The notes: generated from the sequence alone by a model not told the origin. DNA of 64,000 bases from a bacterium (GCA_030149525.1 JASBRJ010000054.1:599-64598); one strand, 5' to 3'. Counted from the first letter of the stretch, positions 323 through 62,215 are shown. Numbers and translations are program-made.

Positions 323-531
323 TTTCTCCTTCTGTCAACTTCTGTCATACACCGCCGGTAGCTTCGGGTTATGTTTCAGAATGTTCCAAAGGCTCCTAGC
401 TCGTGCTCGGTCAAAATTAAGAATCCGGCCCGAGCGGTAGTACCCCAAGTATCTTTTCCAACTCCCCCATTAAGAAATCCATCAAACCGCCGAAGCTTTC
501 TCCTGGGGGAAACTCGTCAGGAAAAAGTGAC

Positions 532-13839: not shown

Positions 13840-15930
13840 CTATTTGTTGGTGATGGGGGACTCGGGCAGACCGAGGTGCTGCGCCATAAAGCTCAAGGAA
13901 AGCGCCTCTCGACCGACCTTCTGAGAAAAGGACGCCCCCTGTCCGTGCCCTGCGTTGGTCTTGGTGACCACGAGCACCGGTTCGCCGGATGTGGTGGCGG
14001 CCTGAAGAGCGGCGCCGAACTTGCGCGTCTGCCAGGGGGCCACTCGGAGATCGTTTTCACCCGTCTCCAGAAGAACGGCGGGATAGGGAGTTCCGGGCTT
14101 CACATTCTGAAGAGGCGAGTAGCCTAGAACCGCCTTGAACTCCGACTCCACTGCGGTGGCGCCGTACTCAGGGATGTTGTAGCGACCGTTGGGAAATCTC
14201 TCATGACCTAACGAGTCGTAAACTCCTACCAAGCCGACCACAGCCTCGAAAGCCTGAGGGTGCTGAACAAGGGAGGCAGCCACCAGAAGTCCACCGTTAC
14301 TGCCACCCATAATTCCCAGCTTCTGGGGATTGGTCCAACCCGCTTCCTGCAGAGCCTGGGCACAGGCGTAGAAATCGTCGAAGACGTTCTGCTTATTGGT
14401 CTTCTGTCCGCCTCTATGCCAGGGCTCTCCAAACTCCCCACCTCCTCGGATGTTGGCCACGGCGTAGACTCCTCCGCGCTCAAGCCAGGCCAGCTTGGCT
14501 CCAAGGTACCGGGGTTGCTGAACCACTCCGAAGCCGCCGTAGGCATAGAGAATTGTTGGACGCTCGGCGTTGGGCGTGACCGATTTGTGATGCAGTACAA
14601 CCAGAGGAACTCGTGTACCGTCCTTACTCACGGCCTCCGTTCGGGTGAGAACGATGTCGTCGAAATTGCCGACGGGGGGAACCTCAAAAACAGTCCTCAG
14701 CTTTCCCGAGTCTGCGTTGTAGCTCACCCAGCGAATGGGATGAGTCCAGCTTTGATAGGTGATCAGAGCCTCGGAAGAACTCCCTGAGGAAGCCATGGAG
14801 CCCAACCCTATACCATCCACCGGCAACGGCACCACGCGCACGAATTCGCCCTTGCTATTCCAGTGCTCCACCCGTTGCTGATCGCCCCAAACGCGGGAGA
14901 CCAGAAGCCCACCCTTGATCGGACGAACTTCCATCACCGCCCACTGACTTTGGGGAATGAGGACTTTGAAAGAGCCGTCGGGCCGATACACTCTCACTTC
15001 TCCCCGAGGGGCGTTCTCATGACTGACAGCCAACAAGCCTTCCGAAACCCACTTACCTCCAGCCCGAATATCCGCTTCTTCGTCGACCACCATCTTCCAG
15101 CCGTCTTCCGTTTGGAACGCCAACTGATATGGTGCGCCATCCCCGAAATGGACGAGGGCGGCGGTCATCTTGCCACCTGGAGAGGTGGTGAGTTCCCACT
15201 CGGCGACTTCTGAAAGACCCTGCCCAAAAGCTTCCCGATCCGTCTCCGACTCCGTGCCGAGTTTATGGTGGTAGAGCGACGCGCTGAACAAGCTGTCTTT
15301 GGGCAGCCTGACGTAGGTCACTCCTTGCTCGTCGGCATCCCAGGCGAGGGCGGGCGGCGTCGTCCCACCGGCAGCGTCCACAAGAACATCCTTGAGCTTT
15401 TTGCCGGTTGCCGTCTCCACGAAGAAGATGGTGGTCAATTCGCTCCCACCCACAGCCGTTCCGTAGGCGACGTATTTGCCGCTGGGAGAAGGCCAGAATT
15501 CCGTGATAGCCGCCGGATGTTCGTCGGCGTTGGTGTTGACCAGCACTTTCTCTTTGCCGTTGGGCCAATCCGCCACCATTAGCACCGGTTGCGGCGAGGG
15601 GGGCGTCTCTTTCATAAAAAAGAGAGTTTGCTCCACAACTCGGGGAGAGAAACGGGTGGCAGGCGTAAGAGACAGTTCTGAAATCCTTTTGGCCAGCGCC
15701 TCCCGCCCGGCGAAGCCGGAAAGCTCCTTTTCCGCATAGCTGTTCTGAGCCTCAATCCAAGCTTTGACTTTCGGGTCGCTCCCTTCCTCAAGCCAGGCGT
15801 AGGGATCGGGCACCTTGATTCCGTGGTAGGTGCGTGAGGCAGTTGTGGTGGCGGTTTGTGGCGGATTGTCCGCCAGGGCGAACGCTTGTAATGTTAACGT
15901 AACGGCAGCGGTCAGAAGTAGTTTCTTCAA
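13840..15930 (-). CDS. Prolyl oligopeptidase family serine peptidase (S9A), secreted
   Basis: Signal peptide present. The catalytic serine motif GGSNGGLLV and a C-terminal D/H region are present. An N-terminal beta-propeller region is inferred from length (696 aa). Confidence 0.9.
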   Translation of the reverse strand: MKKLLLTAAVTLTLQAFALADNPPQTATTTASRTYHGIKVPDPYAWLEEGSDPKVKAWIEAQNSYAEKELSGFAGREALAKRISELSLTPATRFSPRVVEQTLFFMKETPPSPQPVLMVADWPNGKEKVLVNTNADEHPAAITEFWPSPSGKYVAYGTAVGGSELTTIFFVETATGKKLKDVLVDAAGGTTPPALAWDADEQGVTYVRLPKDSLFSASLYHHKLGTESETDREAFGQGLSEVAEWELTTSPGGKMTAALVHFGDGAPYQLAFQTEDGWKMVVDEEADIRAGGKWVSEGLLAVSHENAPRGEVRVYRPDGSFKVLIPQSQWAVMEVRPIKGGLLVSRVWGDQQRVEHWNSKGEFVRVVPLPVDGIGLGSMASSGSSSEALITYQSWTHPIRWVSYNADSGKLRTVFEVPPVGNFDDIVLTRTEAVSKDGTRVPLVVLHHKSVTPNAERPTILYAYGGFGVVQQPRYLGAKLAWLERGGVYAVANIRGGGEFGEPWHRGGQKTNKQNVFDDFYACAQALQEAGWTNPQKLGIMGGSNGGLLVAASLVQHPQAFEAVVGLVGVYDSLGHERFPNGRYNIPEYGATAVESEFKAVLGYSPLQNVKPGTPYPAVLLETGENDLRVAPWQTRKFGAALQAATTSGEPVLVVTKTNAGHGQGASFSQKVGREALSLSFMAQHLGLPESPITNK

Positions 15931-16062
15931 TGGTAAATGTCCTTAGTCTCCAAGTTCTAAACTGCGATGCATAAATAATCGTTTCCCGAAAGATGGGTCG
16001 TTTACCCCTATGTCGAAGGCTGTTCATATAGGAAAATAGAAAACATATTCGGGAGGTAAATA

Positions 16063-29052: not shown

Positions 29053-30123
29053 ATGGCCACTCAATTTACGGAAATCCGCCTGGATTCACTGCTCCTTCAG
29101 GCTCGAGAAATGGGAGCGGAAGACATCCACCTGCAGGCGGGCTCTCCGCCTCTTTTCAGAGTTTTCGGAGACCTCAAGGCGCGCCAGAATAAGAACGTCA
29201 GCATGGAGGCGTTGTACGATCTTTTGGGTCGAATGTTGGAACCGGAACAACTCCCTCTGCTGGAGAAGCAAAGGCGGCTACGCTGGGTACATTGGGCCTC
29301 CGACGATCGGCTGGTGCGGTGCCAGGCTAGCAAATGGCCCAGCGGCTGCACTCTCACTCTGCGCCTCCTCCGAGAGGAACCGCTCCCGCTAGAAGAACTT
29401 GGGTGGGACTCGCACCTGCCCAACCTGCTTGAAGGCTCGGGCCTGATACTTCTGACAGGTCACGCTGGAAGCGGGGTGAGTACGACCCTGGCCTCACTGG
29501 TGAATCTCCTGAATATGACTTCCCGACAACACATTTTGTGCTTGGAGCATGATCTCGAGATAATGCACCCCTACAAGCTCTCTATGATCAACCAGCGCTG
29601 TTTCGATCGCGACTTCGACTGCTGGAAACAGGCGGTTGGTCAGGCCGCCCGCCAAGAGGTAGACACTCTAGTGCTTCACGACGCCCCGTTGAAGGAGGTT
29701 TGGAGCGAGCTTTGTTCTTTTTTAGACGGCGGTGGTCTAGCACTTGTGACCATGAGAGCGTCAAGTGTTTACCGGGCCCTGGAAAGCCTACCCGACTTCT
29801 ATCCGCCCGCAGAGCAACAGTGGGTCCGCCCTCATCTTAGCCGATACCTCGCCGGTGCCACCCATCAGCGCTTGGTGACGGGCAAGCAGGCTCGATACAT
29901 GGCAGGCGCGCTGCTGACCGCCACATTAGGCATCAGAAATCTGTTACTTGAGAACAAGCTTCGGCAGCTCTCTCGCGCCATGGCCTCGAATCCGACCTGC
30001 CGAACTTTGGAGCAAAGCCTTTGCCTGCTGGTGCAAGACGGCACTCTCCGGGCAGAGGAAGCCCTGGCCGTCAGCGACTACCCCGAAGAACTGAAGAGTT
30101 TACTCGCTGGAGGTGCAAGTTGA
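29053..30123 (+). CDS. PilT-like type IV pilus retraction ATPase homologue with a degenerate Walker A (Lys replaced by Val) and degenerate Asp/His boxes
   Basis: PilT N-domain signature DIHLQAGSPPLFRVFGDL is present. The Walker A region reads GHAGSGVSTTLASLVNLLN where canonical PilT has GPTGSGKSTTLAAMLDYLN. EDPIEF is replaced by EHDLEI, GEMRD by HDAPL, and the His box is absent. Confidence 0.7.
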   Translation: MATQFTEIRLDSLLLQAREMGAEDIHLQAGSPPLFRVFGDLKARQNKNVSMEALYDLLGRMLEPEQLPLLEKQRRLRWVHWASDDRLVRCQASKWPSGCTLTLRLLREEPLPLEELGWDSHLPNLLEGSGLILLTGHAGSGVSTTLASLVNLLNMTSRQHILCLEHDLEIMHPYKLSMINQRCFDRDFDCWKQAVGQAARQEVDTLVLHDAPLKEVWSELCSFLDGGGLALVTMRASSVYRALESLPDFYPPAEQQWVRPHLSRYLAGATHQRLVTGKQARYMAGALLTATLGIRNLLLENKLRQLSRAMASNPTCRTLEQSLCLLVQDGTLRAEEALAVSDYPEELKSLLAGGAS

Positions 30124-31187
30124 GGCAAAACTGGAATCTGAGAGAGCTCTTCACATTGGCTTTAGAAGCCGGAGGCACAAGCCTTCATCTCAACAGCGCA
30201 CTCCCGGCGGTGGCCAAGACCAAAGGCGGCTTGGTGCCACTGACCGAGCAATACCTGACTCCAGACGACTGTGAAGACATAGCGGCCACGCTTTCGACCC
30301 AGGCCGTACATCGTCTGAAGCAGGAGAGTTTCTATGGCCTGGAGCCGGGAATTTGTCGATATCGAGCGGAGCTGTATCGCCAACGAGACGTAATCAGCCT
30401 GATTTTTAAGCTGGCCCCCTGGCGACTGCGCCCTCTAGAAGAACTAGGGTTGCCGCCGAACGTTCCCGAGCTTCTACAGGCACGGCGAGGGCTCATACTC
30501 GTATGCGGCCCCCAGGGAGCGGGCAAGAGTTGGACTCTAGCCGCTCTGCTTGACTATATACATCGGCAGCGGTCTGTTCGGAGCCTTGTGCTGGGCGACC
30601 CGTTGGAGTTTGAGCTTGAAGCCCGACTTGGCATGACAACCACTCAGTCGGTGAAGCAGGGTCACTGGGAGGAGGCCTTAGACCAGATAGAATTCTCCGA
30701 CGTGGACGTGGTAGCGCTCGACGATTTTCCAGTTCGCAGAACCCTTGAAAGAGCACTTGAGTTGGCCGAGGCCGGCATCCTGGTTCTGGCCACTGTTCGC
30801 AACGCCCTCGACGTTAGCAGCAGTCTCTTTGAGCTGTGGACCAAACACCCGGCCTGGCTTCATCACAGCCTGAGAGAACGAGTCAGCCAAGCCCTCCAGG
30901 CAATAATTTTTCAGAAGTTAGTAGCGGGCATGACAGACCAGGAAAAATTCCCGGCAACCGAGATTATGTTGGCGAGTCCCCCGATGCGCCACCTCATCCA
31001 AGAAGAGCGATTCATTCAGTTCTACAACTCTATCCAAACTGGTCTGAACTCCGGGATGCACACTCTTGAGCAATCCCTGTTCGAGTTATTCCGTTCCGGA
31101 TGTATCGACGAGAAAACGGCCCTCTCCGAAACCCGTTACCCGGACGACGTGAGACGAAGCATCGGGACGTGGCGGAGTCGAGATTGA
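30120..31187 (+). CDS. Second PilT-like ATPase homologue, with Walker A intact and the Walker B Glu and His box degenerate
   Basis: Probable TTG start overlapping the upstream stop (TTGA). GLILVCGPQGAGKSWTLAALLDYIH is the Walker A. DVDVVALDDFPV replaces DPDVILVGEMRD, and ATVRN replaces GTLHT. Confidence 0.65.
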   Translation: MRQNWNLRELFTLALEAGGTSLHLNSALPAVAKTKGGLVPLTEQYLTPDDCEDIAATLSTQAVHRLKQESFYGLEPGICRYRAELYRQRDVISLIFKLAPWRLRPLEELGLPPNVPELLQARRGLILVCGPQGAGKSWTLAALLDYIHRQRSVRSLVLGDPLEFELEARLGMTTTQSVKQGHWEEALDQIEFSDVDVVALDDFPVRRTLERALELAEAGILVLATVRNALDVSSSLFELWTKHPAWLHHSLRERVSQALQAIIFQKLVAGMTDQEKFPATEIMLASPPMRHLIQEERFIQFYNSIQTGLNSGMHTLEQSLFELFRSGCIDEKTALSETRYPDDVRRSIGTWRSRD

Positions 31188-37933: not shown

Positions 37934-39430
37934 ATGAGCGATACGCAAACAAAGAACGCCCCGGCCAAAGGACAACCCAAGACAGCCGTCCCCATTACCG
38001 TGGCCCACGGTGATGGAATCGGACCAGAGATCATGGGTGCAACTCTGCACATACTTCGAGAGGCGGGAGCTCTACTCGATATTGAAACTATCGATATCGG
38101 CGAGAGCGTCTACAAAGCCGGCTTCTCCTCCGGAATCAAGCCCGAAGCTTGGGATTCGCTCCGTCGGACCGGGGTATTTTTGAAAGCCCCCATCACCACT
38201 CCGCAGGGTGGCGGATACAAGAGTCTCAACGTGACCGTGAGGAAAAGCCTCGGTCTCTATGCGAATCTCAGGCCTTGTGTCGCCTATGCGCCCTACGTTC
38301 ACACCAAGCACCCCGGCATGGACGTCGTTATTGTGAGGGAGAACGAAGAAGACTTGTACGCAGGTATTGAGCACCGCCAGACCGGTGAGGTCTATCAGTG
38401 CCTCAAACTCATCTCTCGACCAGGTTGTGAGAAGGTTGTGCGATACGCTTTTGAATTCGCCCGGTCTCAGGGTCGGAAAAAAGTGACTTGCTTTACCAAA
38501 GACAACATCATGAAACTGACCGACGGTCTCTTTCATAAAGTCTTCGACGAAATTGCTCAGGAGTATTCCGACATCGAAAACGAGCATTGGATCGTGGATA
38601 TCGGAGCGGCGAAGTTGGCGGATACCCCAAGTCAGTTCGACGTTGTGGTGATGCCCAACCTTTATGGGGATATTCTCTCCGACGTGGCCGCTCAAATCGC
38701 AGGCTCCGTGGGGCTGGCAGGCTCGGCCAACATCGGCGAACACTGCGCCATGTTCGAAGCCATTCACGGCTCGGCACCTCGTCGCGCCGGTCAAAACATG
38801 GCCAATCCTTCCGGTCTGCTCCAAGGCTCGCTTTTGATGCTTGATCATATCGGACAATCCGATGTTGCGGCCAGAATCCAAGATGCCTGGCTCAAGACTC
38901 TCGAAGACGGCTATCACACCTATGACATCGCGACTCCGGAGCACACCAAGGAAACCGTCGGTACGAAAGAATTCGCAGAACATGTTGTGAAGCGTCTAGG
39001 TCAGAAGCCGGAGAAACTCCAGGGGCGAAAGATGTCGGGCTCGAGCTTTAAAGTCCCCACGGCCAAGAGACCTCTTCTCGACCGCGCGTCGCTGAAGAAA
39101 ACCACCCTGGGCGTCGACGTCTTCCTACACTGTTGCGACACCGATGCCGAGAAGCTCGGTACGAGACTTCATGCCAGCTCAACCTCCCAACTGGAACTGA
39201 AGATGATCACCAATCGAGGTCAGAAAGTTTGGCCCGACGGAATGCCGGAAACCTTCTGCACCGACCATTGGCGTTGCCGCTTCGTTCATCCGGAGGGCAA
39301 GGAGATCACCAATCGAGATGTGGTGGAACTGTTGGATAAGCTAGAGTCCAACGACTTCGACTTCATTAAGACCGAGCACCTTTGCAGTTTCGACGGAGAG
39401 CGCGGCTTTTCCATGGGACAAGGCGAGTAA
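37934..39430 (+). CDS. icd: Isocitrate dehydrogenase, homodimeric ICDH/IPMDH family, with a ~140-aa C-terminal extension
   Basis: GDGIGPEIM, LRPCVAY, NLYGDILSD and GSAPRRAG motifs are present. AAAGGAG Shine-Dalgarno upstream. Confidence 0.85.
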   Translation: MSDTQTKNAPAKGQPKTAVPITVAHGDGIGPEIMGATLHILREAGALLDIETIDIGESVYKAGFSSGIKPEAWDSLRRTGVFLKAPITTPQGGGYKSLNVTVRKSLGLYANLRPCVAYAPYVHTKHPGMDVVIVRENEEDLYAGIEHRQTGEVYQCLKLISRPGCEKVVRYAFEFARSQGRKKVTCFTKDNIMKLTDGLFHKVFDEIAQEYSDIENEHWIVDIGAAKLADTPSQFDVVVMPNLYGDILSDVAAQIAGSVGLAGSANIGEHCAMFEAIHGSAPRRAGQNMANPSGLLQGSLLMLDHIGQSDVAARIQDAWLKTLEDGYHTYDIATPEHTKETVGTKEFAEHVVKRLGQKPEKLQGRKMSGSSFKVPTAKRPLLDRASLKKTTLGVDVFLHCCDTDAEKLGTRLHASSTSQLELKMITNRGQKVWPDGMPETFCTDHWRCRFVHPEGKEITNRDVVELLDKLESNDFDFIKTEHLCSFDGERGFSMGQGE

Positions 39431-43013: not shown

Positions 43014-44519
43014 TCATTCTCCCTGTCCGAGCGAGTAGCCACGCTCTCCGGCAAAAGAGCAAAGATTCTCAGTTTTGATGAAATCGTAGCCCCGTTCCGA
43101 GAGTCGGGTGAGCAATTGAAGGATGTGGGCGTGGTTCACCGCCGAACCCTCGGGATGAACGAATCGGCATCTCCAGTGATCGGTGCAGAACGTCTCCGGA
43201 AGGGGATTGGGCCAAACCTTCTGGCCCCGATTGGTGATCATCTTGATCTTCAATTGCTCCGTGGAAGCCTCTGTGAGACCCAGTCCAAGCCTCTCGGGAT
43301 CAAGATCGGTGTGATGGAGGAAGACGTCAACGCCCATCGTTTCCTTGCGAAGTGCCTTCAGATCGAGAGTGGTTCGCTGAATCTTGGGCTTGGCAACCGA
43401 AGAGTTTTCCGATTTGAGATCGCGAACCGTCAACTGCTTTGGCGCCGAGCCCAGTCTCTCGACAACAGCATCAGCAAACTCGTCTGTACCGACCAATCTG
43501 CGGGTGTGCTCTTGGGTGGAAATGTCGAAGGTGTGAACACCGTCTTCCAGAGTTCGGAGCCAGGCTTTCTGAATTCTTGTTGCCACCTCGGGCTGGCCGA
43601 GATGAACCAACATTTGATTGGCAGCCTGGAGCAGCCCCGACGGATTGGCTTGATTCTTTCCGGCAATCTGGGGAGCCGAACCGTGAATCGCCTCGAACAT
43701 AGCACAGCTCTCCCCGATGTTGGCAGAACCGGCAAGCCCCACCGAACCGGCGATCTGTGCGGCCACGTCGGAGACGATGTCGCCATACAGATTGGGGGTC
43801 ACGATCAGATCAAAATCTTCCGGAGTGTCGGCCAGGCGAGCAACTCCGATGTCAATAATCATGTGGTCCTTCTCCAGCTCGCCGTACTCCGAACCGATCT
43901 CATCAAAAACGCGATGAAAAAGACCGTCGGTAAGCTTCATAATGTTGTCCTTGGTGAAGCAAGTGACTTTTTTTCGACCGTTGGCGCGAGCGTACTCAAA
44001 GGCAAACCTGACGATTTTCTCACAACCCGGTCTGGTGATGAGCTTCAAGCATTGATAGACTTCACCGGTCTGGCGATGCTCAATACCGGCATAGAGGTCC
44101 TCTTCATTCTCCCTGACGATGACCACATCCATACCCGGGTGACGAGTTCTTACGAAAGGTGCGTAAGCGACGCATGGCCTGAGATTGGCGTAGAGCCCAA
44201 GGCTTTTTCGGATGGTGACATTCAGACTTTTGTAGCCTCCACCTTGGGGAGTTGTAATAGGACCCTTCAGGAGAACCCCGCTCTCTCGAATCGCCTCCCA
44301 CGCCTCAGGCCGAATGCCGGAGGTGAATCCCTGCTTGTAGACTTTCTCTCCGATATCGATAGCGGTAATATCGAGCGATGCACCGGCTTCTTTGAGAATT
44401 CGCAGAGTGGCGGACATTATTTCCGGCCCGATTCCGTCACCGTAAGCCACCGCAAGGGCCGGCTTCGTGAGCGTGCCGATCTCCTGACGTTCTGTCCTGT
44501 TTTCTAGAGCAATATTCAT
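43014..44519 (-). CDS. icd: Isocitrate dehydrogenase paralogue (~80% aa identity to the copy at 37934-39430)
   Basis: Same motifs and the same C-terminal extension as the first copy. DNA identity to copy 1 is roughly 75%, which is not recent. Confidence 0.85.
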   Translation of the reverse strand: MNIALENRTERQEIGTLTKPALAVAYGDGIGPEIMSATLRILKEAGASLDITAIDIGEKVYKQGFTSGIRPEAWEAIRESGVLLKGPITTPQGGGYKSLNVTIRKSLGLYANLRPCVAYAPFVRTRHPGMDVVIVRENEEDLYAGIEHRQTGEVYQCLKLITRPGCEKIVRFAFEYARANGRKKVTCFTKDNIMKLTDGLFHRVFDEIGSEYGELEKDHMIIDIGVARLADTPEDFDLIVTPNLYGDIVSDVAAQIAGSVGLAGSANIGESCAMFEAIHGSAPQIAGKNQANPSGLLQAANQMLVHLGQPEVATRIQKAWLRTLEDGVHTFDISTQEHTRRLVGTDEFADAVVERLGSAPKQLTVRDLKSENSSVAKPKIQRTTLDLKALRKETMGVDVFLHHTDLDPERLGLGLTEASTEQLKIKMITNRGQKVWPNPLPETFCTDHWRCRFVHPEGSAVNHAHILQLLTRLSERGYDFIKTENLCSFAGERGYSLGQGE

Positions 44520-52031: not shown

Positions 52032-53471
52032 TCAAGACACTCGCCTCCCTGGGGGAAGAGGAAAGAATGTGGGTTGAGCGAGTCGTCTCATCCAGCCGCC
52101 CACCGAACCGGCCCCTAAGCCGACGACGAGATCACCCGGTCGACAAACGGTCCGGACCTGAGACTTGAGTTCCGGGAATCCGGGGACAAAAAGAATCGTC
52201 TTGCCGGGATAGGCCGCCACTAGGGAGCGATAGAGACTGTGCCCGTCGACGCCCGTAATCGGCTCCTCACCGGCCCCGAAAATCTCCGTCACCATAATCA
52301 CGTCGGCGTTGTCGAAAGCGAAGGGATATTGATCTTGTAGCAACTTGGAGCGAGTGTATCGATGGGGCTGAAAGACGGCCACGACGCGCTCGCGACAGAC
52401 CGACCGAGCCCCCGCCAGAGCAGCTTCAATCTTCTGGGGATTGTGAGCGTAATCGTCTACGTAAATCACTCCGTTGCTTTCGCCCACAATTTCAAATCGA
52501 CGGCGAATTCCTTGGAAACGCTCGATGGCTCCGGCAATATCTTCGAATCGAAGACCGGCGTTCAGCGCTATGCCCACAGCGGCGAGAGCGTTTCGAAGAT
52601 TATGCGAACCGGGAAGCGGAACTCGAAGAACACCCAGCGGGCGGCCCTCAAGAACAATCCGGGCTTGGGTGCAATGGCCGTCCTGTTGAACATCAACGGC
52701 ACGAAGCTTCGCTTCCTCATCCAAGCCGTAAGTCAACCACTGGGGGCTGGCTATCAGTCGCAGCATGCGCTTTATGTTGGGATGATCGCAACAAACCAAA
52801 AGTCTTTGTTCAACACCCAGGCAAAATTTGAGAAAGACCTGAGTGACCTCTTCCAGCGCCTGATCGAGGTTGTAGGAACAGCCGGAATATCTCTCAGAAG
52901 TGACATTGATATCGGGATCGATGCTAGTCAGAACGGCGTACTGAGGCTGGAATTTCTCCAGGGTACCGTCCGACTCGTCTGCCTCGGCTATGAGGATATC
53001 GGATGTCCCAACAACACAGTTCGTCTTTTCTTTGGCCAACTCTCCGCCGAGGAGCGCTGTGGGCGATAGACCGTTGGAGGACAAGACATGATAAATCAGA
53101 GATGAGGTCGTCGTCTTTCCGTGGGTTCCGGCCACAACCACGCTTTGGAGGTCGGAGATAAACTCCGCCAGCAAATCGGAACGATGGAGAATGGGGATAT
53201 TCATGGCCTGATAGACCTGGAGTTCTCGATGATCCGGAGGGATGGCCGATGAAACTATCACACGATTGGCATCTCTTCTTGCTTGCGCCTCCGGCCCGGT
53301 CTCAATTTCCGCACCAAGCTCTCGCAGTTCACGAGTTCGACGACCGGCCTGAAGATCGGTTCCGGAGACCCGTTTCCCGCGCTTGAGGCAGAGTTTCGCT
53401 AGAGCCGACATGCCGACGCCACCCGCCCCCAGAAAATGGGTTGTTCCTATGTCCTCTTTGATGTAGTTCAC
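52032..53471 (-). CDS. murC: UDP-N-acetylmuramate--L-alanine ligase (Mur ligase family; Mpl not excluded)
   Basis: N-terminal HFLGAGGVGMSALAKLCLKRGKRVSGTDL and the Walker-like GTHGKTTTSSL. Confidence 0.7.
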   Translation of the reverse strand: MNYIKEDIGTTHFLGAGGVGMSALAKLCLKRGKRVSGTDLQAGRRTRELRELGAEIETGPEAQARRDANRVIVSSAIPPDHRELQVYQAMNIPILHRSDLLAEFISDLQSVVVAGTHGKTTTSSLIYHVLSSNGLSPTALLGGELAKEKTNCVVGTSDILIAEADESDGTLEKFQPQYAVLTSIDPDINVTSERYSGCSYNLDQALEEVTQVFLKFCLGVEQRLLVCCDHPNIKRMLRLIASPQWLTYGLDEEAKLRAVDVQQDGHCTQARIVLEGRPLGVLRVPLPGSHNLRNALAAVGIALNAGLRFEDIAGAIERFQGIRRRFEIVGESNGVIYVDDYAHNPQKIEAALAGARSVCRERVVAVFQPHRYTRSKLLQDQYPFAFDNADVIMVTEIFGAGEEPITGVDGHSLYRSLVAAYPGKTILFVPGFPELKSQVRTVCRPGDLVVGLGAGSVGGWMRRLAQPTFFPLPPGRRVS

Positions 53472-53592: not shown

Positions 53593-54579
53593 TCAGCGAC
53601 CCGGCGCCTGCCCCGACAGCAGACGAGAGACTGTTTCACCTACCCTGCGGCTATCCACAATGTGAGTCGCCGCTCCCAGCATAATCGCTGATTCGGGCAT
53701 CCCCGCCACGGCAGCGGTGGAAGGATCTTCCACCACAGTGACAGCACCGGCCAGGCGCAACTCCAGCAGCCCTCTGGCTCCGTCGGCGCCCATCCCGGAA
53801 AGGACAATCCCCAAACTCTCGTTACCGCGAGAGCGGGCAAACGACTCAAAAAGCCTATCGGCGGAAGGGGCAAAGTGATCTTGAGGAGAGGCCTTCCCCA
53901 AATAGAGTTCTCGATCATTGAAAAGCAGATGACGACCGGGAAGCCCGACGTAGAGAGTGCCCGGCTCCGGAACAATATTGGCGGTGACCAATTCACATCG
54001 CCAATCCGTCACTTCCCTCAGCCAGGTCAAGAAGCCTGAGGTCCCTTCCTGAGTCAGATGTTGAACGAGTATGGCACTGACGCCTGTGTCGGGTCGAACT
54101 TGCCGCAAAAGTTGTTCGACCGTGCGGGGGCCACCAGAGGAAGAGGCGATGAGCATAAAATGCCTCTTCTTGAAGAGATGACTTCGGTAGTTCCGTCGAC
54201 GAATGACTCGCAAACCTCTCATGAGCCGGACAGTCTTGACTAACTCCCGGTAGCTTGCTTGAAAGTCCTCGCTCTTGCTGACCACGGCCACAGCGCCCGA
54301 GCGTTCGGCACTACTTTTGAACTCTGCCGGGCTTGCCGTGAAGAGGACGATAGGCACAGGATAAAGCTCCAGAAGCTTCTCCGTGACTTGAGGGCCGCTC
54401 AGCCCAGGCAGTTGACCGTCCACCACCACAACGTTTGGCTTTAGGATGGGAACCAGGCGCAAACACTCTCGGCCGTCTCCCACTGCGGCCACAACCTGAA
54501 TATCGTCCTCTTCGGAGAATTGCTTCAGAAGAGCTTCTCGCTGAAAATCACTGTCTTCTAGAAGAACGATTCGTATCAC
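53593..54579 (-). CDS. cheB: Chemotaxis response regulator protein-glutamate methylesterase CheB
   Basis: N-terminal REC domain, then an esterase domain with the SSSGGP, PSAD and GMGADGA motifs. Confidence 0.85.
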   Translation of the reverse strand: MIRIVLLEDSDFQREALLKQFSEEDDIQVVAAVGDGRECLRLVPILKPNVVVVDGQLPGLSGPQVTEKLLELYPVPIVLFTASPAEFKSSAERSGAVAVVSKSEDFQASYRELVKTVRLMRGLRVIRRRNYRSHLFKKRHFMLIASSSGGPRTVEQLLRQVRPDTGVSAILVQHLTQEGTSGFLTWLREVTDWRCELVTANIVPEPGTLYVGLPGRHLLFNDRELYLGKASPQDHFAPSADRLFESFARSRGNESLGIVLSGMGADGARGLLELRLAGAVTVVEDPSTAAVAGMPESAIMLGAATHIVDSRRVGETVSRLLSGQAPGR

Positions 54580-56399
54580 AGTAGTCGACTCACAATTTGA
54601 AGAAATTTGGCTTCCTGGAAATCTCCCTTACCCAGGCAACGGTCGGCCCCGAGCAAACGAGCTTTCTGAAAGGAATCATAATCGTCGCGTGAGGTAAAAA
54701 GCACAAAAGGCAGACTGGGGTAGGGACTCTGCTCAGATCTGAGCCACTCCAAGAACTCCAGCCCGTTAAGATTCGGCATCTCCAGGTCACAAACTATCAG
54801 GTCAAAGGACTGTTCCGCAAGCTTGGCCTGCGCATCCAGGCCGTCCACCGCTTGCTCAACAGAATATCCGTTGCGTTTCAAGACGTCCAGGAGAATCGTT
54901 CTGGTCGTGACCGAATCATCCACAACCAGAACTCGCTTTCCGTCCTCCTCCACCCGGGGCACGTATTTCTGAGTCACCCGTCTTGCTGGGTTCGTCTCCA
55001 TTCTCAGATCCTCGAGATCGACGAGGAAAATCGTCTCCGCGTTCCAGGACGCGACGCCGAAGGCGGAGGGGCTAAGATGACTGACGGATGGAAGAGCATA
55101 GCCCAGGATCTCTGAAATCCCCTGGCAATCGGAGATAAGAAACCCTTTGCGGACCGACTTCTTAGCGGAAACCTCATCTTGGCACCAGACGATATAATGA
55201 GGTCTCTCCGCTTCCTGACTTTCATACCCGAAAGCTAAGCCGAGTATCGGGAGTGTGGGCTCCTCGCTTTCCAGCACTTCCACTTTTTCAATGGAGGAGG
55301 TTGCCAGCCCGAACACCTTCCCACAACTGCGCGCAATCAGGCATCGGCTCAAGAAGAACGGCGAGGGCACCTCGATCCGAAGGCATGTGCCCTGGTCCAC
55401 CGGCTTAAAGAAGACGCGCCCGTTCAATCGATGCACACTTTCTCGAACAGCCGCAAGTCCCACTCCGCGACCGGCGTGATGATCGGCGGTGTCACGAAGC
55501 GAACGACCGGTTTCAAAGAGCAGATTGACCTTCTCTTCAAGCTCCAGGGCCTCCCATGATTGCGGTCGATTCTCTTTCTCATAGGATCGACGAAGTTTGT
55601 CGAGATTGACCCCGCCTCCGTCGTCATGAACTTCCAAGCAGATGAAACGTTCATCTTGAAAAAGCTCGACGGTGAGAAGTCCCTGGGGGTCTTTACCTCT
55701 CTCGATCCGGGCCTGCGGAGTTTCGATACCGTGCACGACACTATTGCTCACCAGGTGAACGAGAGCGCCCCTGAGTTCTGTCAAATAGTCCCGCAAGATC
55801 TGATCGGTGGATGCTCGACAGTGGAGACTCACCTTCTTCGAGTGAGACGCGCTCACACTCTGAACGACCGAGTCGAGCCCCAGAAAGAGCTGGTGAACTG
55901 GAGCGAAGACGGTCTGAAAAGTGAGTTCTCTGAGCCTTCGAACCTCCGACTCAACAACCGGCTCTTTCTTCTTTTCGGCTGTCGCTTTGACCAGAGTCTC
56001 AAGCTTTGCTACCGTGCTCAAGAGTCTTTGCAAAATCGAGATGGAGCCGGCGCTCTCCACAGCCGGCATAGGAGCGGGCGCAGACTCCCTCGGTCCAGCA
56101 ACCGTTTCCCCGATCAGTTCCTGAAGTTCTCCCAGGAGTCTCTCCAGCCGAGCAAACTCCGGGGAGTGGGGAGTGAGAGGAGAGCCCAATATCTCCTCAG
56201 CCTCGTGAGCCTTTCGAGCCGCCTCCTCCAGACCCATCATGTTGGCCGAACCCTTGAGGGTATGGAGAGTCGTCTTCACCGGAGTTAAGTCGGAGTTACC
56301 CTTCTTGAACTCTTCCACGGTGTTAAACACCAACTCCAACCGCTTCCGAGTTTCGCTGGCAAACAGCTGCTGAAGAGAGGCTTCATTTGAACGACTCAA
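54576..56399 (-). CDS. cheA: CheA-type histidine kinase fused to a C-terminal receiver (WspE/FrzE-like)
   Basis: Hpt domain (HTLKGSANMMG), HATPase_c domain (HDDGGGVN), CheW-like domain, and a C-terminal REC domain (VLVVDDS...DLIVCDLEMP). Confidence 0.85.
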   Translation of the reverse strand: MSRSNEASLQQLFASETRKRLELVFNTVEEFKKGNSDLTPVKTTLHTLKGSANMMGLEEAARKAHEAEEILGSPLTPHSPEFARLERLLGELQELIGETVAGPRESAPAPMPAVESAGSISILQRLLSTVAKLETLVKATAEKKKEPVVESEVRRLRELTFQTVFAPVHQLFLGLDSVVQSVSASHSKKVSLHCRASTDQILRDYLTELRGALVHLVSNSVVHGIETPQARIERGKDPQGLLTVELFQDERFICLEVHDDGGGVNLDKLRRSYEKENRPQSWEALELEEKVNLLFETGRSLRDTADHHAGRGVGLAAVRESVHRLNGRVFFKPVDQGTCLRIEVPSPFFLSRCLIARSCGKVFGLATSSIEKVEVLESEEPTLPILGLAFGYESQEAERPHYIVWCQDEVSAKKSVRKGFLISDCQGISEILGYALPSVSHLSPSAFGVASWNAETIFLVDLEDLRMETNPARRVTQKYVPRVEEDGKRVLVVDDSVTTRTILLDVLKRNGYSVEQAVDGLDAQAKLAEQSFDLIVCDLEMPNLNGLEFLEWLRSEQSPYPSLPFVLFTSRDDYDSFQKARLLGADRCLGKGDFQEAKFLQIVSRLL

Positions 56400-56839
56400 C
56401 GCAGGGCCTCCATGTCGAGAACGAGGATATCTCCGATTTTCCCCTTTGCTCCGCTCTGCTGCACAGGTGACATGTCCTCATGAAAAAGCTCGGCCAAGGA
56501 AGTTTTCCTGGGGAGTCTCAGGGCCAATGATTTGTCTCTCAGGAGCGCAAAAAGGTAGTCTGAATGGTGAACCGGACGCTCACCGATAAGCTCTACGATA
56601 TCCACCACCGGATAGGCGGAAAGCTCCCAGCAAAGTAGACCCAAACATCGATATCCGCGCCAGGAGACCCCTCTGGGACACTCCAGCGGGGTGGTCTCAA
56701 CCACTGTTGAGAAATAGCGACTGGGCAGAGCCCATCGCTGATCTTCCATGTCCACCACTAGAAAACTCGAGGTGGGCCGGCTTTCTCGGGTCTCGCGGTT
56801 GGCAAGCTCAAGAGCACGAGCATCGAAAATCTCCTTCAC
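56396..56839 (-). CDS. cheW: CheW-like coupling protein
   Basis: 147-aa single CheW domain. Overlaps both neighbouring genes by 4 nt. Confidence 0.8.
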   Translation of the reverse strand: MKEIFDARALELANRETRESRPTSSFLVVDMEDQRWALPSRYFSTVVETTPLECPRGVSWRGYRCLGLLCWELSAYPVVDIVELIGERPVHHSDYLFALLRDKSLALRLPRKTSLAELFHEDMSPVQQSGAKGKIGDILVLDMEALR

Positions 56840-57795
56840 CGGCCGGCCTCGATACGCTCCCGAATCAGTTGGGTGGAACGAAAGAATTGCTCTCCGCTCA
56901 CCCCTCTCTCGGAGAGATAGTTTTGAGTGTCGTCGTCTAGAAGATTGCGGTTCTCAAGGATGAATCCCACCCGACTTCGAGCTTCCTGGACCTGCTCTTC
57001 TTCAAGATCCACCAGGGCCAGAAAATAATGACCTGCAAGAAAGCCCTTTTTGTCCGACAGAATCGTATTGAGCTTGCTCCTGACTGCTCTGAGATCGCCA
57101 TGGGCGAAGTCTTTCAAGGCGCTCCCCAGAGTCACCGAACGCCTGCCCTCTTCCACGACCGGCTCAGGCTCGGACATCTTAGCAAGGCTCTTTGGCGGCC
57201 GCCTTGGAGGGAGAGCCGTCCGGGCTTGAAAAATGCCGTGCTGATCGAGCCTGGTCAGACCGGAATGCTCAATCAAACTCGATTCGGCGTAACCCAGAAC
57301 CAGAAGTCCGTTGGGCAAGAGCGCGTCCACAAGCTTATTCAGAACCTCTAGCTGGGTCCCCTTATCAAAGTAGATGAGAACGTTTCGGCAAACCACCACA
57401 TGGTAGGCTGCTTGCGGTGGGCGAGTCTTGAGAAGATCCGATCTTTCAAAATCCACCGAGCGCCTGACTTCGGGGGCAACGGTGTAGCGGGAGTCTCCCA
57501 CTGCTTCTATTTCGTAGGCTCGAGGAAGAAGTCGAAAAGTCTCCTCCCGATAGATCGCGAGAACGGCCTGCGCCAGGGACTCTTCGTCTTTGTCGGTGGC
57601 CCGAATGTGATGAGGCCGGCCCAGTCGATGGAGAAGATAGGAAAGAGAGTAGGCCTCTTCCCCCCGGGAGCATCCGGCACACCAAACCCGCAAAGTCTCC
57701 TTAACCGGCAAACGAGAAAGGTGACCCGTTAACGCCTCCATCTGGGCGGGATGGCGCCAAAAATAGGAATGATTGGGCAGCTTACCCTCACTCAC
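56836..57795 (-). CDS. cheR: CheR-type MCP methyltransferase with a C-terminal TPR-like extension
   Basis: FWRHPAQMEALTGHL...LRVWCAGCSRGEEAYS is the CheR SAM-binding core. The ORF is open to 57957, but the first ~55 codons overlap the CheW2 tail and look non-protein-like, so the start is placed at GTG 57795. This start is uncertain. Confidence 0.7.
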   Translation of the reverse strand: MSEGKLPNHSYFWRHPAQMEALTGHLSRLPVKETLRVWCAGCSRGEEAYSLSYLLHRLGRPHHIRATDKDEESLAQAVLAIYREETFRLLPRAYEIEAVGDSRYTVAPEVRRSVDFERSDLLKTRPPQAAYHVVVCRNVLIYFDKGTQLEVLNKLVDALLPNGLLVLGYAESSLIEHSGLTRLDQHGIFQARTALPPRRPPKSLAKMSEPEPVVEEGRRSVTLGSALKDFAHGDLRAVRSKLNTILSDKKGFLAGHYFLALVDLEEEQVQEARSRVGFILENRNLLDDDTQNYLSERGVSGEQFFRSTQLIRERIEAGR

Positions 57796-58297
57796 CGTGT
57801 GCCTCGTCCAAAAGGGCAAGCTCAGCCTCAGCCTTCTGTTTTCGCTCTTCGATAAGTTGTGTTTGCCTTTCCATGGCAAGCCTCTCCGACTCCAGAAGGA
57901 GTTGTGGCAGGACCAACACGGGGATCTGACCGTTTTCGTCGTCGATATGGGCGGCAAGACCGGGATAGGTGTTCTGACTCCCTGGTACCGGCTTGAGATC
58001 TTCCCAGCTGCAGCGCTGGAACCCCACCACTCTACCCACCCTCAGAGCCCAGGGGTTCTGTTCTTGAGCCACTAGTAGCGCATCGTAGAGGGCGATCTCC
58101 CGAGGTGGGCTTTGCAGAAGTTTGTAGAGCGGGATGACCGGAACCCATCTCTCTCCCAGCCGGAAGTACCCCTCCACCAAGGCTTGTTCGCTCCGTTCCG
58201 AGGGTTGCAAGGTTGGGCAGAGGGTCACTTCCCGGACGTCGTGAGTGTAAAATGCATAGCTTGAATCGCCTTCTTGAACCTTCAAGAGGGAAAACAT
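57788..58297 (-). CDS. cheW: Second CheW-like coupling protein
   Basis: 169-aa CheW domain with a coiled-coil tail. Confidence 0.7.
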   Translation of the reverse strand: MFSLLKVQEGDSSYAFYTHDVREVTLCPTLQPSERSEQALVEGYFRLGERWVPVIPLYKLLQSPPREIALYDALLVAQEQNPWALRVGRVVGFQRCSWEDLKPVPGSQNTYPGLAAHIDDENGQIPVLVLPQLLLESERLAMERQTQLIEERKQKAEAELALLDEAHGE

Positions 58298-58300
58298 ATC

Positions 58301-59911
58301 CTAACGCACCGCCTTGAGAAGTTCACTATTCTCCAACGACTCATTCAGTTGAGCAAGACGAGCTGCGTCGGAACGAAGCTGACGGCTTTCATCCTCCACC
58401 AGCTCCGCACTCTCGCGCATGGCTTGCAACGCTTGTTCCACTTGAGTCAGGGCCGTGCTCTGTTGGCGAACGGCGGCCACAACTTGAAGGAAGGTATTGT
58501 TCCCGTGATCCACGGCATTCTTAAGCACTTTGATCGATTCTGAGGCTTGACTTGCAGCATCGTTTCCGTACTTCACTTGCTTGGAGGTCTCTTCCGTTGC
58601 AAGAACCACCCGTTGAATCTGGCTTCGCACGTCTTGCAGAGTTTCGTGAATCTCAAGCGTTGCCGTCTTGGAACGTGAGGTGAGCTTCTGCATTTCCTCG
58701 GCCAAAACGGAGAAGGAATCGCGGTTTCCGTCGTTGGCCGAGGCGAGAAGCGCTGCGTTAATACTCAAAATATTCGATCTCTCGGTCAACTCGTTCACAA
58801 AAAATACAATGCGTTCGATGCGAGCAGCCTTCTGATTGAGCTCAAGGGTGATCTCACCAACCTGGTTCACCTGGCGAGTGACAGTCTGGGCAGCTTCCAG
58901 GCTGCGGTCCACGGCACTGAGGCCCTGGGTTCCTGCAGCCTCGCGAGCGCGTGCCTCCTCTACCGACTCCGAGGCCTTCTCCGACATCTGAGAGGCGGAA
59001 ACATTCATGTCTTTGATGGTAGCAGCGATCTCCTGAATGGCTGCTGAAAGCTGAGAGATGGCGGCCGTTTGCTCCACCGCTCGCTTAGACAGAGCGGATG
59101 CGAGACCGGCGACTTTGACTCTGGCCGCGTCGACTTCGCCTGCCCCTCGACCGAGTGCCTGGGTCATCTCATTGATGGAGCGAGTCAGAGTCCCGATCTC
59201 ATCCTCCTGCTGTACCACCAGGAGGTCGTTGGGGAACTGATTATGGGCGATAGCTTCCGCCCGATTGATACAGGCCGACAGTGGCTCAAGCCGCTTCTTG
59301 ACACCTTCGAACCAGAAGTAATTGAAGAGACCGATGATGAGGACTCCTCCGACGGCGATAATCTTAAGAGCCGTGATGGCCGAATTCACCTTACTCCAGG
59401 CCTGTTTGACATACTCCGTCTCCAGATCGGTCACCGAGCGTGTGAGTTCGGCGATGTCTGTCATGAGCTGTTTGCCCTGATCGGACAAAACGATTGTCCT
59501 CGCTTGCTCCGAACTATTCTGACGGGCGAGTCTTATGGTCTCACTCAGCTCGGCCAGCTTCTCGGTCGCGGTGGTACTGAGAAGCGAGAGACGGGCCTTC
59601 TGGTCCGATTTCTCAGAAAGTTCTTGCGCCTCGGTTAGGGCCTGATTGATCTGACGTGTTTTCTTCGGAACATCCACCAGATAGTCGGAACGACCGGTGT
59701 AGAGATAGCCGCGCTGGCTACTCTCGATCTCTCTTATGAGATTCTCCGCTGTCAGCACATTCTTCACAATCTTCGAAGAGAGTTCGGCTTGAGTGGAGGC
59801 CTGATCGAAGGAAAAGACACTGATCAAGGAGAGCAATCCCATTCCCCAGGCCAGAAAAAGCGAAATGATGATGCTCCATTTGGCGCTCTGTAATAGTCCT
59901 AGTTTACTCAT
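58301..59911 (-). CDS. Methyl-accepting chemotaxis protein with a periplasmic CHASE3-like sensor
   Basis: Predicted TM1, then a CHASE3-like region ([13 protein letters not shown]), TM2, a HAMP domain, and the MCP signalling domain ([38 protein letters not shown]). Confidence 0.85.
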
Positions 59912-61769
59912 GTGTTGTTTGCTCCGTCAGCACTTCGATTTTTGCGATCAATTCGTTGGTTGGGACCGGTTTGATCAGGTAGTCCGTCATTAAACCGTCC
60001 AGTCTCTCACGAAGATCGTCGGACTGGGTTCGGGCCGTGAGGGCGACCACCGGCTTTCGAGGAAGTGAGTTATCCGCCTCATGGCGCCGGATCAATTCGC
60101 AAGCTTCGATCCCGTTGAGTCCGGGCATCTGCAGGTCCATGAGAACAAGATCGAAGGAGGACTCTTTGAAGCACGCCACCGCGTCGTCGCCGTTTCTCAC
60201 CCAGTGGATGTCGAAGCCGTGTCGACCCAAGGACATACTGATTATCTGACCGTTGATGGGGTTATCCTCGGCCAAAAGGATCCTCAGTTTTTTGCCACAA
60301 GGCTTGGCGGCCTGCGGTAACTCCCCGGACTCCATCTGTTCCAGGGCGTGATGAAACTTCCAACTGACGAACGTTCCTTGAAAATCCCGCTCCGTCTCTC
60401 CATCGGAAAGCTTTGCGGTGTCGCCTTCGAGGGTCAAGATGCGAGGGGAATCCGAGTTCAGGTAGTCTTCGTCCAGGAGTTTGCCGAAGAGAGGTACCAG
60501 AGAGGTCGACTCGCCTTCTCGAAGCTGCAAAGACATCCACTCCCCAGACTCCTCGCCTGACTCCTTTTCGGCCGGAATGAACAACTCAAAAATACTTCCG
60601 GTACTATCGCTTCGCGTTAACTTCAGCCAACCCTTAAGGATGGAAGCTAATTGAGCCGAAATTGTGAGCCCCAACCCTGTTCCCTCCACCGGCTTAGCAA
60701 AGGATTGTTCCACCTGACTGAATTCTTCGAAAATTCGAGTTTGCGCCTCTTGAGGTATTCCGCTTCCGGTGTCCTCCACCAGAAATTTGAGACCGTTGCC
60801 CCATTCTTGCACCTGAACCAGGACGTAACCGCTGCGAGTGAACTTTAGAGCGTTTCCGATAAGGTTAATCAAAATTTGCCGAACAAAGGCGGGATCGGTG
60901 TCGTTCCAATGATCATGAAGGCTGTTGGGAACATGAATTCCCACCGGAATCTTTTTCTGAATAGCAAGACCCTTGATCGGCGCCAGCGTGCGTTCCAACA
61001 TAGGCCTCAGCCGAAACGCCTTCAGGTTGGGCTCCATTTTGGAGGACGCAATTTTGGAATAATCAAGAACCTTGTTAATAATGTCCAAGAGGTCCATGGA
61101 ACTCTGGTGTATGACCCTGATGGATTCGTGGGTGGACACTGAAAGTTGTGGATCGTCGAGAAGCAGCTTCGACATTCCGATAATGCCGACCATAGGAGTT
61201 CGAATCTCATGAGAGATGTTGGCTAAGAACGTGTCTTTGGCTTTTGTAGCGCGCTCTGCTCTCGCCCGAGCCTCGTCGACTTCCTGATTCTTTTTCTTCA
61301 ACTCATCGTTGGCTTGCTCGGCTTTATTTAGCTCTTCTTGAAGCCGCGATTCCAGCCTGAGAATCCGCTGGGGAACCCGTAAAATGAGGGACAATTCGGA
61401 GTTGTCGTAGGCCTTGGTCATAAAAGCATCGGCGCCGGCTTTCAAAGCCTCGATGTGCTGCTCGGCAGCCTGGCTGGTCATCACCACCAGGTAGAGATCT
61501 CGAAACTGCTGAGAGGCTCTCACCCAACGGCACAAATCCAAGCCTGTCATGCCTGCCATCATCCAGTCGGTAATGATAGCATGGAAGCTCTCGTTTCTAT
61601 TGAGCAGAGCCAGGGCTTCCGGGCCGGAAGCCGCCTCGGTGACGCAATGCCCCCATTCCTCGAGCACCTTCCTCAGGGTACGACGAGTAACCACATCGTC
61701 GTCGACGAGCAGGAGATTGAGTGAAGGCAGAGGCCCGGTACCGGAGCATGAAGACGCACTGCTATTCAT
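59904..61769 (-). CDS. Hybrid sensor histidine kinase / response regulator (REC-HisKA-HATPase-REC)
   Basis: N-terminal REC (LLLVDDD), HisKA H-box (ISHEIRTPM), G-boxes (DTGSGI, GTGLGL), and a C-terminal REC (ILLAEDN...[10 protein letters not shown]). Confidence 0.85.
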
Positions 61770-61924: not shown

Positions 61925-62215
61925 CTAAGCAGCCAGCAGAGGCCCCTGGCCGAGAACTCGTCGCACGGATTCGGAAGTGCCTACCAGGCGCAAGGAGCCG
62001 CCGTGTCGGGCGAGATAGTCGGAGATGGAGTTCAGAAGCTCTACCCCAGTAACATCCAGGCTCGTGACTCCCGAAAGATCCAGGGCGATCTTAATATGCC
62101 CTTCACTGACAACTCGGTCGAGGCTTTGCAGTAGCTCTCGGTAATGCTCCATGTCGACTTCTCCATCCACCACGATGATGGGGATTCCGAACAGATCGTT
62201 TCTTAAAATGCTCAT
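61925..62215 (-). CDS. STAS-domain anti-sigma-factor antagonist-like protein
   Basis: 96 aa. LDLSGVTSLDVTGVELL is a SpoIIAA-like pattern. Confidence 0.65.
   Translation of the reverse strand: MSILRNDLFGIPIIVVDGEVDMEHYRELLQSLDRVVSEGHIKIALDLSGVTSLDVTGVELLNSISDYLARHGGSLRLVGTSESVRRVLGQGPLLAA

Follow-up and report, generated by a model that had tools for sequence, protein, structure and literature searches.

The 64,000-nucleotide (nt) stretch of bacterial DNA analysed here (GCA_030149525.1 JASBRJ010000054.1:599-64598; hereafter the window) carries a block of seven genes that encodes a hybrid histidine kinase together with six chemosensory proteins: a methyl-accepting chemotaxis protein (MCP), the coupling protein CheW, the methyltransferase CheR, a cryptic CheW-like protein of 147 amino acids (aa), CheA-REC (a CheA kinase fused to a receiver domain), and CheB. 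The block probably constitutes a self-contained, non-flagellar pathway of the alternative cellular function (ACF) or Wsp-like kind, in which the output is a second kinase instead of a cyclase. This reading is built on the gene content of the block, its organization as an operon, and the synteny of the seven genes among related loci. It also draws on catalytic sites and phospho-acceptors that are intact, on the CheW fold that the 147-aa protein adopts in its model, and on the lack of any other output in the 64 kb.

In the proposed pathway, the transmembrane MCP would sense a periplasmic or envelope cue via its CHASE3 domain, and CheW and the CheW-like protein would link the MCP to the compact CheA-REC. 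CheA would autophosphorylate on H46 of its Hpt domain and pass the phosphoryl group to three receivers. The first is its own C-terminal receiver, which may act as a sink or autoregulator; the second is CheB, which together with CheR would provide methylation-based adaptation; and the third is REC1, the N-terminal receiver of the cytoplasmic hybrid kinase that heads the operon. Phosphorylated REC1 would toggle the hybrid kinase on or off and so set the phosphorylation state of its C-terminal receiver, REC2. From REC2, the signal would run through an Hpt protein and a response regulator whose genes lie elsewhere, or it would act through direct protein contact. We infer all of these phosphotransfer steps, as well as their sign, the stimulus, and the controlled process.

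The seven-gene unit and its relatives

The seven genes lie on the minus strand, from 61769 to 53593, and overlap or almost touch one another. The junctions measure -8 nt (hybrid kinase/MCP), +3 nt (MCP/CheW), -8 nt (CheW/CheR), and -4 nt at each of the remaining three (CheR/147-aa protein, 147-aa protein/CheA, and CheA/CheB), a spacing that fits translational coupling and a single operon. The outer gaps are wider: 155 nt separate the upstream STAS gene from the kinase gene, and 121 nt separate CheB from murC. A single operon had been proposed from the tight overlaps in a model's reading of the sequence alone (the original prediction), which also noted the STAS gene just upstream and a hybrid kinase at the 5' end that overlaps the MCP gene by 8 nt. 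All of these features were recovered, and every gene that it named lies where it was placed, on the minus strand and with a strong domain score. A consensus scan for promoters and terminators yielded no more sites than shuffled sequence did; it identified neither a terminator between CheB and murC nor a clear promoter 5' of the kinase. Rfam and tRNA scans of the 64-kb window gave zero matches.

The order MCP, CheW, CheR, CheW, CheA-REC, CheB, which the original prediction had equated with wspA-F, was matched to that of the Pseudomonas fragi wsp operon (locus L092), which served as the Pseudomonas reference. In that operon, the best match of the 169-aa CheW is WspB and that of the 147-aa protein is WspD. 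The wspA-F order can be regarded as real because the model of the 147-aa protein matches CheW and CheA-P5 structures only (see below). The terminal WspR-type cyclase of Wsp systems is absent, as had also been predicted, and murC comes next: no GGDEF domain is encoded anywhere in the 64 kb, including the region beyond murC, and no flagellar genes adjoin the operon in the window. More broadly, annotation of the open reading frames (ORFs) of the window revealed no flagellar, CheY, CheZ, CheC/D, CheV, GGDEF, or cyclase gene, and no PP2C phosphatase, RsbW-type (HATPase_c_2) kinase, or sigma factor. A phmmer search that covered every stop-to-stop ORF of 50 aa or more found receivers and kinase domains inside the operon only. 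Neither a stand-alone Hpt nor a single-domain receiver occurs in the window; the only Hpt is the P1 domain of CheA.

Related loci were found in five independent marine metagenome contigs (L001, L002, L084, L086, and L087), whose CheA proteins are 38-84% identical to that of the window (84% in L084, 54% in L001, and 41% in L086). A domain scan showed that the block is kept in all five, in the order hybrid kinase, MCP, CheW, CheR, 147-aa protein, CheA, CheB, with the kinase always at the 5' end; the same scan detected REC-GGDEF in none of them. The flanks vary. murC follows CheB only in the 84% relative, and the STAS gene is found in none of the five; upstream of the L084 block, a HAMP kinase and an OmpR-type regulator take its place. 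Because the block is kept in five loci while the flanks differ, the seven genes are a conserved unit, and STAS and murC are mere neighbours. The host is probably a marine Phycisphaerales-like planctomycete, as suggested by partial members of the same 90% sequence clusters, which are labelled Phycisphaerales, and by relatives that come from Tara and other marine assemblies.

The hybrid kinase as the putative output

The hybrid kinase comprises two Response_reg domains (E 1e-46), a HisKA domain (5e-17), and a HATPase_c domain (4e-21), as assigned by Pfam. Hydropathy analysis revealed no hydrophobic or transmembrane segment, and Pfam detected no sensor domain besides the N-terminal receiver; thus, REC1 is the sole possible input of the kinase. 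In an alignment of orthologs, D68, T98, and K119 of REC1, H187, N306, and the G1 and G2 boxes of the catalytic core, and D545, T578, and K600 of REC2 are all invariant. The linker that joins REC1 to the DHp domain is also invariant. REC1 and this linker are the best-conserved parts of the protein: between the window and L086, REC1 is 67% identical, as compared with 41% for the whole of CheA. Since the kinase and MCP genes share 8 nt and the kinase keeps its 5' position in all five related loci, down to a CheA identity of 38%, the kinase is considered to belong to the chemosensory system.

Transfer from CheA to REC1 is favoured because REC1 is the sole input of the kinase and CheA is the only other kinase encoded in the conserved block. 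The phospho-sites and ATP-binding boxes of both CheA and the hybrid kinase are invariant, as is the phospho-site of CheB. In particular, H46, the N, G1, and G2 boxes, and receiver residue D538 are unchanged across the CheA family (nine clusters, 38-100% identity). CheB, which is 28% identical to WspF (E 1e-31), has the phospho-acceptor D53 in its receiver and the catalytic triad Ser147, His174, and Asp266.

Two sets of genes in the related loci bear on where the signal may go. In L086, a REC-class III nucleotidyl cyclase gene (Guanylate_cyc; L086:8474-9691) lies directly 3' of CheB. Among all receivers compared, that of the cyclase is the closest to REC1 of the kinase (34% identity, approx. 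80-85 bits), a likeness that fits both receivers being targets of the same CheA; the arrangement suggests that the L086 lineage has a second, cyclic nucleotide output. L002 and L087 both encode, 3-10 kb from the operon, a REC-GerE (LuxR-type) regulator and a stand-alone Hpt protein. These two are candidates for partners that act downstream of the hybrid kinase; a search for their equivalents in the window found none. A link to GGDEF proteins was considered for L001, where a 916-aa coiled-coil GGDEF-EAL protein is encoded just upstream of the kinase (L001:1776-4526), and was rejected, as this protein has neither a receiver domain nor a GG[DE]EF motif. The original prediction had offered two kinds of output, phosphorelay and partner switching. 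With the kinase conserved alongside the operon in all loci, phosphorelay is the best reading, whereas partner switching found no support (see below).

Several points weigh against a pathway that runs from CheA through REC1 to the hybrid kinase. The direction of transfer from CheA to REC1 draws on analogy and architecture, and the approx. six to nine distinct sequences available are too few for an analysis of covariation between CheA P1 and REC1. No stand-alone Hpt and no terminal response regulator that would end the pathway are encoded in the window. In L001, the domains of the kinase are divided between two ORFs (REC-HisKA... and ...HATPase-REC; L001:4624-6460), which could reflect an assembly error or frameshift, a real split, or relaxed constraint. 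In neighbour-joining (NJ) analysis, in which distances are saturated, the CheA core is roughly equidistant from Wsp, type IV pilus (Tfp)-like, and F-type CheAs. Moreover, the genome is incomplete, its contig spanning 65 kb, and flagellar genes or a CheY may be encoded elsewhere in it.

Table 1. Genes of the chemosensory operon, its immediate neighbours, and candidate partner genes in related loci
Feature	Coordinates	Strand	Evidence
Hybrid histidine kinase, REC1-HisKA-HATPase-REC2, 621 aa	59904..61769	-	Pfam
MCP, CHASE3-HAMP-MCPsignal, 536 aa	58301..59911	-	Pfam, hydropathy
CheW coupling protein, 169 aa, WspB position	57788..58297	-	Pfam CheW, E 9e-15
CheR methyltransferase, 319 aa from GTG 57795, WspC position	56836..57795	-	Pfam CheR, E 4e-39
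Cryptic CheW-like protein, 147 aa, WspD position	56396..56839	-	AlphaFold model, Foldseek, profile searches
CheA-REC kinase, 607 aa, Hpt(P1)-P3-P4-divergent P5-REC	54576..56399	-	Pfam
CheB, REC + CheB_methylest, 328 aa, WspF position	53593..54579	-	Pfam CheB_methylest, E 1e-42
murC, 3' neighbour of CheB	52032..53471	-	TIGR01082, 417 bits, above cutoff
STAS gene, 96 aa, 5' neighbour of kinase	61925..62215	-	STAS domain, E 3e-15
Hpt/REC-GerE pair in L002 (candidate partners)	L002:15034-15372 and 1-404		Located 3-10 kb from the operon
Hpt/REC-GerE pair in L087 (candidate partners)	L087:14845-15207 and 15296-15976		Located 3-10 kb from the operon

Divergent components and their known counterparts

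The MCP has the CHASE3 sensor that had been predicted for it (Pfam, E 1.7e-21), followed by HAMP and MCPsignal (E 6.5e-21) domains. Hydropathy analysis places two transmembrane segments at residues ~12-33 (TM1) and ~181-200 (TM2), flanking the periplasmic CHASE3 domain. The signalling hairpin, with arms of approx. 140 residues and approx. 40 heptads, is equal in length to that of P. fragi WspA, and plausible methylation motifs are present. The tip region (residues ~366-415) is non-canonical, the canonical motif being NAAIEA.KAGE.GRGFAVVA. Most of the near-universal tip residues (EAxRAGExGRGFAVVA) are lost, yet the tip is invariant within the family. The C-terminus of the MCP, ELLKAVR(S) at residues 529-536, is also conserved in the family and could serve as a docking site for the atypical CheR.

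The 147-aa protein gave no match to Pfam or NCBIfam even at E=5, and profile searches against the Protein Data Bank (PDB) gave only weak CheW matches (E approx. 0.4). Its structure was predicted by AlphaFold from an alignment of nine family members (pLDDT 82.9). When the model was compared with the PDB by Foldseek, the 18 best matches were all CheW or CheA-P5 structures (TM-score approx. 0.66, E down to 7e-8), and the matches after these were noise. The family aligns with that of the first CheW in hhalign (E 8e-5). Among 1.84 billion representative sequences, a profile search with the 147-aa family found 24 relatives only, the weakest of which are Pfam-positive CheWs (E 1e-4 to 1e-3). The protein is thus CheW-like in its predicted fold, which consists of two SH3-like beta-barrels, and in its sequence profile. 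The second CheW of the original prediction stands on these structural and profile comparisons, although the protein lies below the detection limits of Pfam and NCBIfam.

CheR contains the S-adenosylmethionine (SAM)-dependent methyltransferase domain, with SAM motifs present. Its ORF extends to 373 aa from a TTG codon; however, the start is most likely GTG 57795, overlapping the CheW stop, because the orthologs are 307-319 aa long and the 54 codons upstream of this GTG resemble out-of-frame CheW sequence. The protein has no N-terminal helical domain and ends in a conserved C-terminal tail of approx. 100 aa, which a single-sequence AlphaFold2 model of low pLDDT (44) predicts to be all-helical. 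Identification of this tail with the TPR region of WspC was rejected: the hhalign match to WspC (99.6%) covers the methyltransferase core only.

In CheA, Pfam recognizes Hpt, HATPase_c, and Response_reg domains; P2 is absent, and the P5/CheW-like domain falls under the Pfam threshold (E 0.012). Against E. coli CheA, a profile of the CheA family gives an alignment that covers P3 and P4 and extends into the beginning of P5. The closest relatives are nine proteins scoring 380-1344 bits, after which the matches drop to approx. 200 bits and 28% identity; those beyond the nine are ordinary CheA-REC proteins, Pseudomonas WspE included. NJ analysis of CheA cores places the family on a long isolated branch; the distances are saturated, and WspE comes out as the nearest outgroup with a negligible lead (0.733 vs 0.73-0.80 for the other types). 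The architecture, that is, the CheA-REC fusion with no CheY or flagellar genes nearby, is consistent with the ACF class of the chemosensory classification of Wuichet and Zhulin (as cited in PMC3868531 and PMC7184735).

The system shares with Pseudomonas Wsp the order of the six core genes, similar protein lengths (MCP 536 vs 540 aa, CheW 169 vs 171 aa, and CheB 328 vs 336 aa), the hairpin of approx. 40 heptads, the absence of P2 from CheA-REC, and the extension of CheR at its C-terminus. Identity to P. fragi WspA, WspC, WspE, and WspF is 24-31% for the MCP, CheR, CheA, and CheB pairs. Unlike Pseudomonas Wsp, it has no WspR (REC-GGDEF), and its sensor is CHASE3 rather than a four-helix bundle (4HB). 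The receptor tip is degenerate in the window MCP but canonical in WspA (NAAIEAEKAGEYGRGF). Both P. fragi CheWs are visible to Pfam, whereas the 147-aa protein in the WspD position is not. CheA is 607 aa long, as compared with 769 aa for WspE; CheR is missing the approx. 68 aa found at the N-terminus of WspC, and the tails at the other end of the two proteins do not align.

A closer counterpart in published layout is the WspH system of Burkholderia. In B. cenocepacia, wspA-F is preceded on its 5' side by wspHRR (wspH, Bcen2424_3785; protein ABK10522.1), which encodes a hybrid kinase/response regulator, and WspR is absent; wspHRR is required for Wsp output, wsp mutations alter colony form and biofilm while c-di-GMP is unchanged, and suppressor genetics suggests the involvement of an OmpR-type regulator from another locus (PMC8552884, PMC4324302). 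In the same work, H-systems were restricted to Burkholderia, and Wsp systems in general to beta- and gammaproteobacteria (PMC8552884). As in Burkholderia, the window has a REC-kinase gene followed by MCP, CheW, CheR, CheW, CheA-REC, and CheB, with no GGDEF gene, and its output is presumed to be phosphorelay to a response regulator encoded elsewhere. In contrast, the window kinase gene overlaps the MCP gene by 8 nt, whereas wspH has been reported as apparently an independent transcription unit; moreover, the window kinase has a second, C-terminal receiver, the sensor is CHASE3, and the host is a planctomycete. Since the CheA clade forms an isolated long branch, the system probably originated independently of WspH, although the NJ branch would fit homology as well as convergence.

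A further precedent is Che3 of R. centenum, an ACF-class system that controls cyst formation: the receiver at the N-terminus of CheS3 is phosphorylated by CheA3-REC, and the kinase activity of CheS3 is controlled in this way (PMC3868531). As in Che3, one che cluster encodes both a CheA-REC and a kinase that begins with a receiver. The two systems differ in gene order and host phylum; in addition, CheS3 phosphorylates the stand-alone CheY3, whereas the window kinase has the fused REC2.

A more far-reaching version of the ACF-like pathway, which we regard as conceivable but tentative, treats the family as a distinct, deep-branching class that is confined to marine Phycisphaerae-like bacteria and reached the H-type design independently. 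In such a class, the receptor tip, both CheWs, and P5 would have diverged jointly, giving an interface that is orthogonal to that of canonical arrays, and CheR, with no N-terminal domain and a new helical tail, would dock on ELLKAVR.

Alternative wirings and the range of outputs

Three other readings of the operon were weighed. The first is ordinary flagellar or type IV pilus chemotaxis, with a CheY or PilG-type receiver encoded elsewhere and the hybrid kinase as an unrelated neighbour or an accessory phosphate sink. The incompleteness of the genome is compatible with it, as are the pilin-like gene (11808-12455) and PilT/GspE-like ATPase genes (29053-31187 and from 62377) of the window and the failure of the CheA-core tree distances to split the family from F-type or Tfp-type CheAs. 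It is nevertheless unlikely, for no CheY, CheZ, CheC/D, CheV, or flagellar gene lies within the 64 kb; a CheA-REC without P2, two CheW-type proteins, and the MCP-W-R-W-A-B order are features of Wsp rather than Tfp; and the kinase gene overlaps that of the MCP and stays with the cluster in every relative. Unlike the window, Pseudomonas-type Tfp (Pil-Chp) loci carry PilG/PilH-type receivers and a giant multi-Hpt ChpA; the 607-aa CheA has one Hpt, and no single receivers accompany it.

The second reading reverses the wiring: the kinase would act upstream, autophosphorylating and passing phosphate to REC2, and REC2 would use CheA P1 as the Hpt of a phosphorelay that leads to CheB and CheA-REC. HisKA-HATPase-REC kinases normally need an Hpt, and CheA P1 is the only one in the operon and the window. 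However, the sensor of the kinase is REC1 only, which needs phosphorylating, and CheA is the only other kinase there; the ATP-binding domain of CheA is complete and conserved; and in L002 and L087, an Hpt and a REC-GerE regulator are encoded apart from the operon, at a distance of 3-10 kb. We consider the reversed wiring quite improbable.

The third reading, partner switching, in which the Che system would control STAS phosphorylation and thereby a sigma factor or other target, is very improbable. Points in its favour are the position of the STAS gene, on the operon strand with a gap of 155 nt to the kinase gene, a Thr at the DxTG position that could be phosphorylated, and a weak promoter-like site upstream of the gene (62276-62248, minus strand). 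Against it, the gene is missing from L084, with its HAMP kinase and OmpR-type regulator, and from every other related locus, it accompanies a divergent cNMP/MshEN gene in L089, and the window lacks the RsbW-type kinase, PP2C phosphatase, and sigma factor that would be expected. Unlike an RsbV/RsbW/RsbU module, the window thus has a STAS protein and neither the cognate HATPase_c_2 kinase nor the PP2C.

Action of the pathway on the pseudo-ATPases of the window, another suggestion of the original prediction, was not borne out: these genes are 23 kb away or divergently transcribed and are not conserved beside the operon. The genes meant were probably two tandem PilT/GspE-like (T2SSE) genes at 29053-30123 and 30021-31187, both on the plus strand; the first has a degenerate Walker A motif (GHAGSGVST, with the Lys lost), and that of the second is intact (GPQGAGKS).

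Other genes of the window were noted in passing. The gene that starts at 62377 on the plus strand and runs off the window end encodes cNMP_binding and MshEN domains and a GspE/PilB-like C-terminus without Walker A. It fills the stretch upstream of STAS (62.2-64 kb), which had looked devoid of ORFs. The two genes are transcribed divergently and stay together in L089, where the full protein is 609 aa long (L089:26-1855). The pilin-like gene (plus strand) encodes a prokaryotic N-terminal methylation motif and is followed by ORFs without a family match. Two isocitrate dehydrogenase paralogs (37934-39430, plus strand; 43014-44519, minus strand), each with Iso_dh and bacterial IDH C-terminal domains, are inverted relative to each other and 71% identical in protein sequence; between them lie a carbonic anhydrase gene, a DUF6671 gene, and unknown ORFs. 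Because the paralogs show no similarity at the DNA level, the duplication is old.

A wider comparison covered 80 distant CheA-REC loci (CheA identity of 30% or less) from a contig profile scan. Their outputs include REC-GGDEF in L006, L007, and L035, from Actinomycetes and Chloroflexota metagenome-assembled genomes (MAGs), and REC-REC-cyclase proteins in the loci of myxobacterial (Polyangiaceae) MAGs. A REC-HisKA-HATPase-REC kinase directly follows CheB in an alphaproteobacterial MAG (L010:13579-15843) and in a Bacteroidota MAG (L019:13621-15858). These kinases are encoded 3' of CheB, in loci with another gene order, whereas the window kinase is 5', and identity is only 30-34%. The outputs of CheA-REC systems look modular, like interchangeable receiver-coupled effectors, and kinase outputs may be more widespread among them than the literature indicates.

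The design principle of the operon is already known from Burkholderia WspH and R. centenum Che3. New are its occurrence in a deeply divergent, Phycisphaerales-like planctomycete lineage, the double-receiver kinase, and the CHASE3 sensor, along with several parts: the degenerate receptor tip, the cryptic CheW, the compact CheA, the divergent P5, and the CheR without an N-terminal domain. The practical significance is modest, as the mechanism has precedents and the organism has not been cultured. Chemotaxis-like systems that do not serve motility are common in genomes, and their outputs are mostly unknown. The present findings indicate that a Wsp core combined with a receiver-kinase is not confined to Burkholderia but also occurs in marine Planctomycetota, where it was probably assembled independently. 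The extra or different outputs of the relatives, such as the REC-class III cyclase of L086, support the view that sensor-adaptation cassettes are modular and have been placed on varied effectors. Moreover, the degenerate interface of tip, CheW, and P5 could represent a natural insulated array, which would be useful for understanding signalling specificity.

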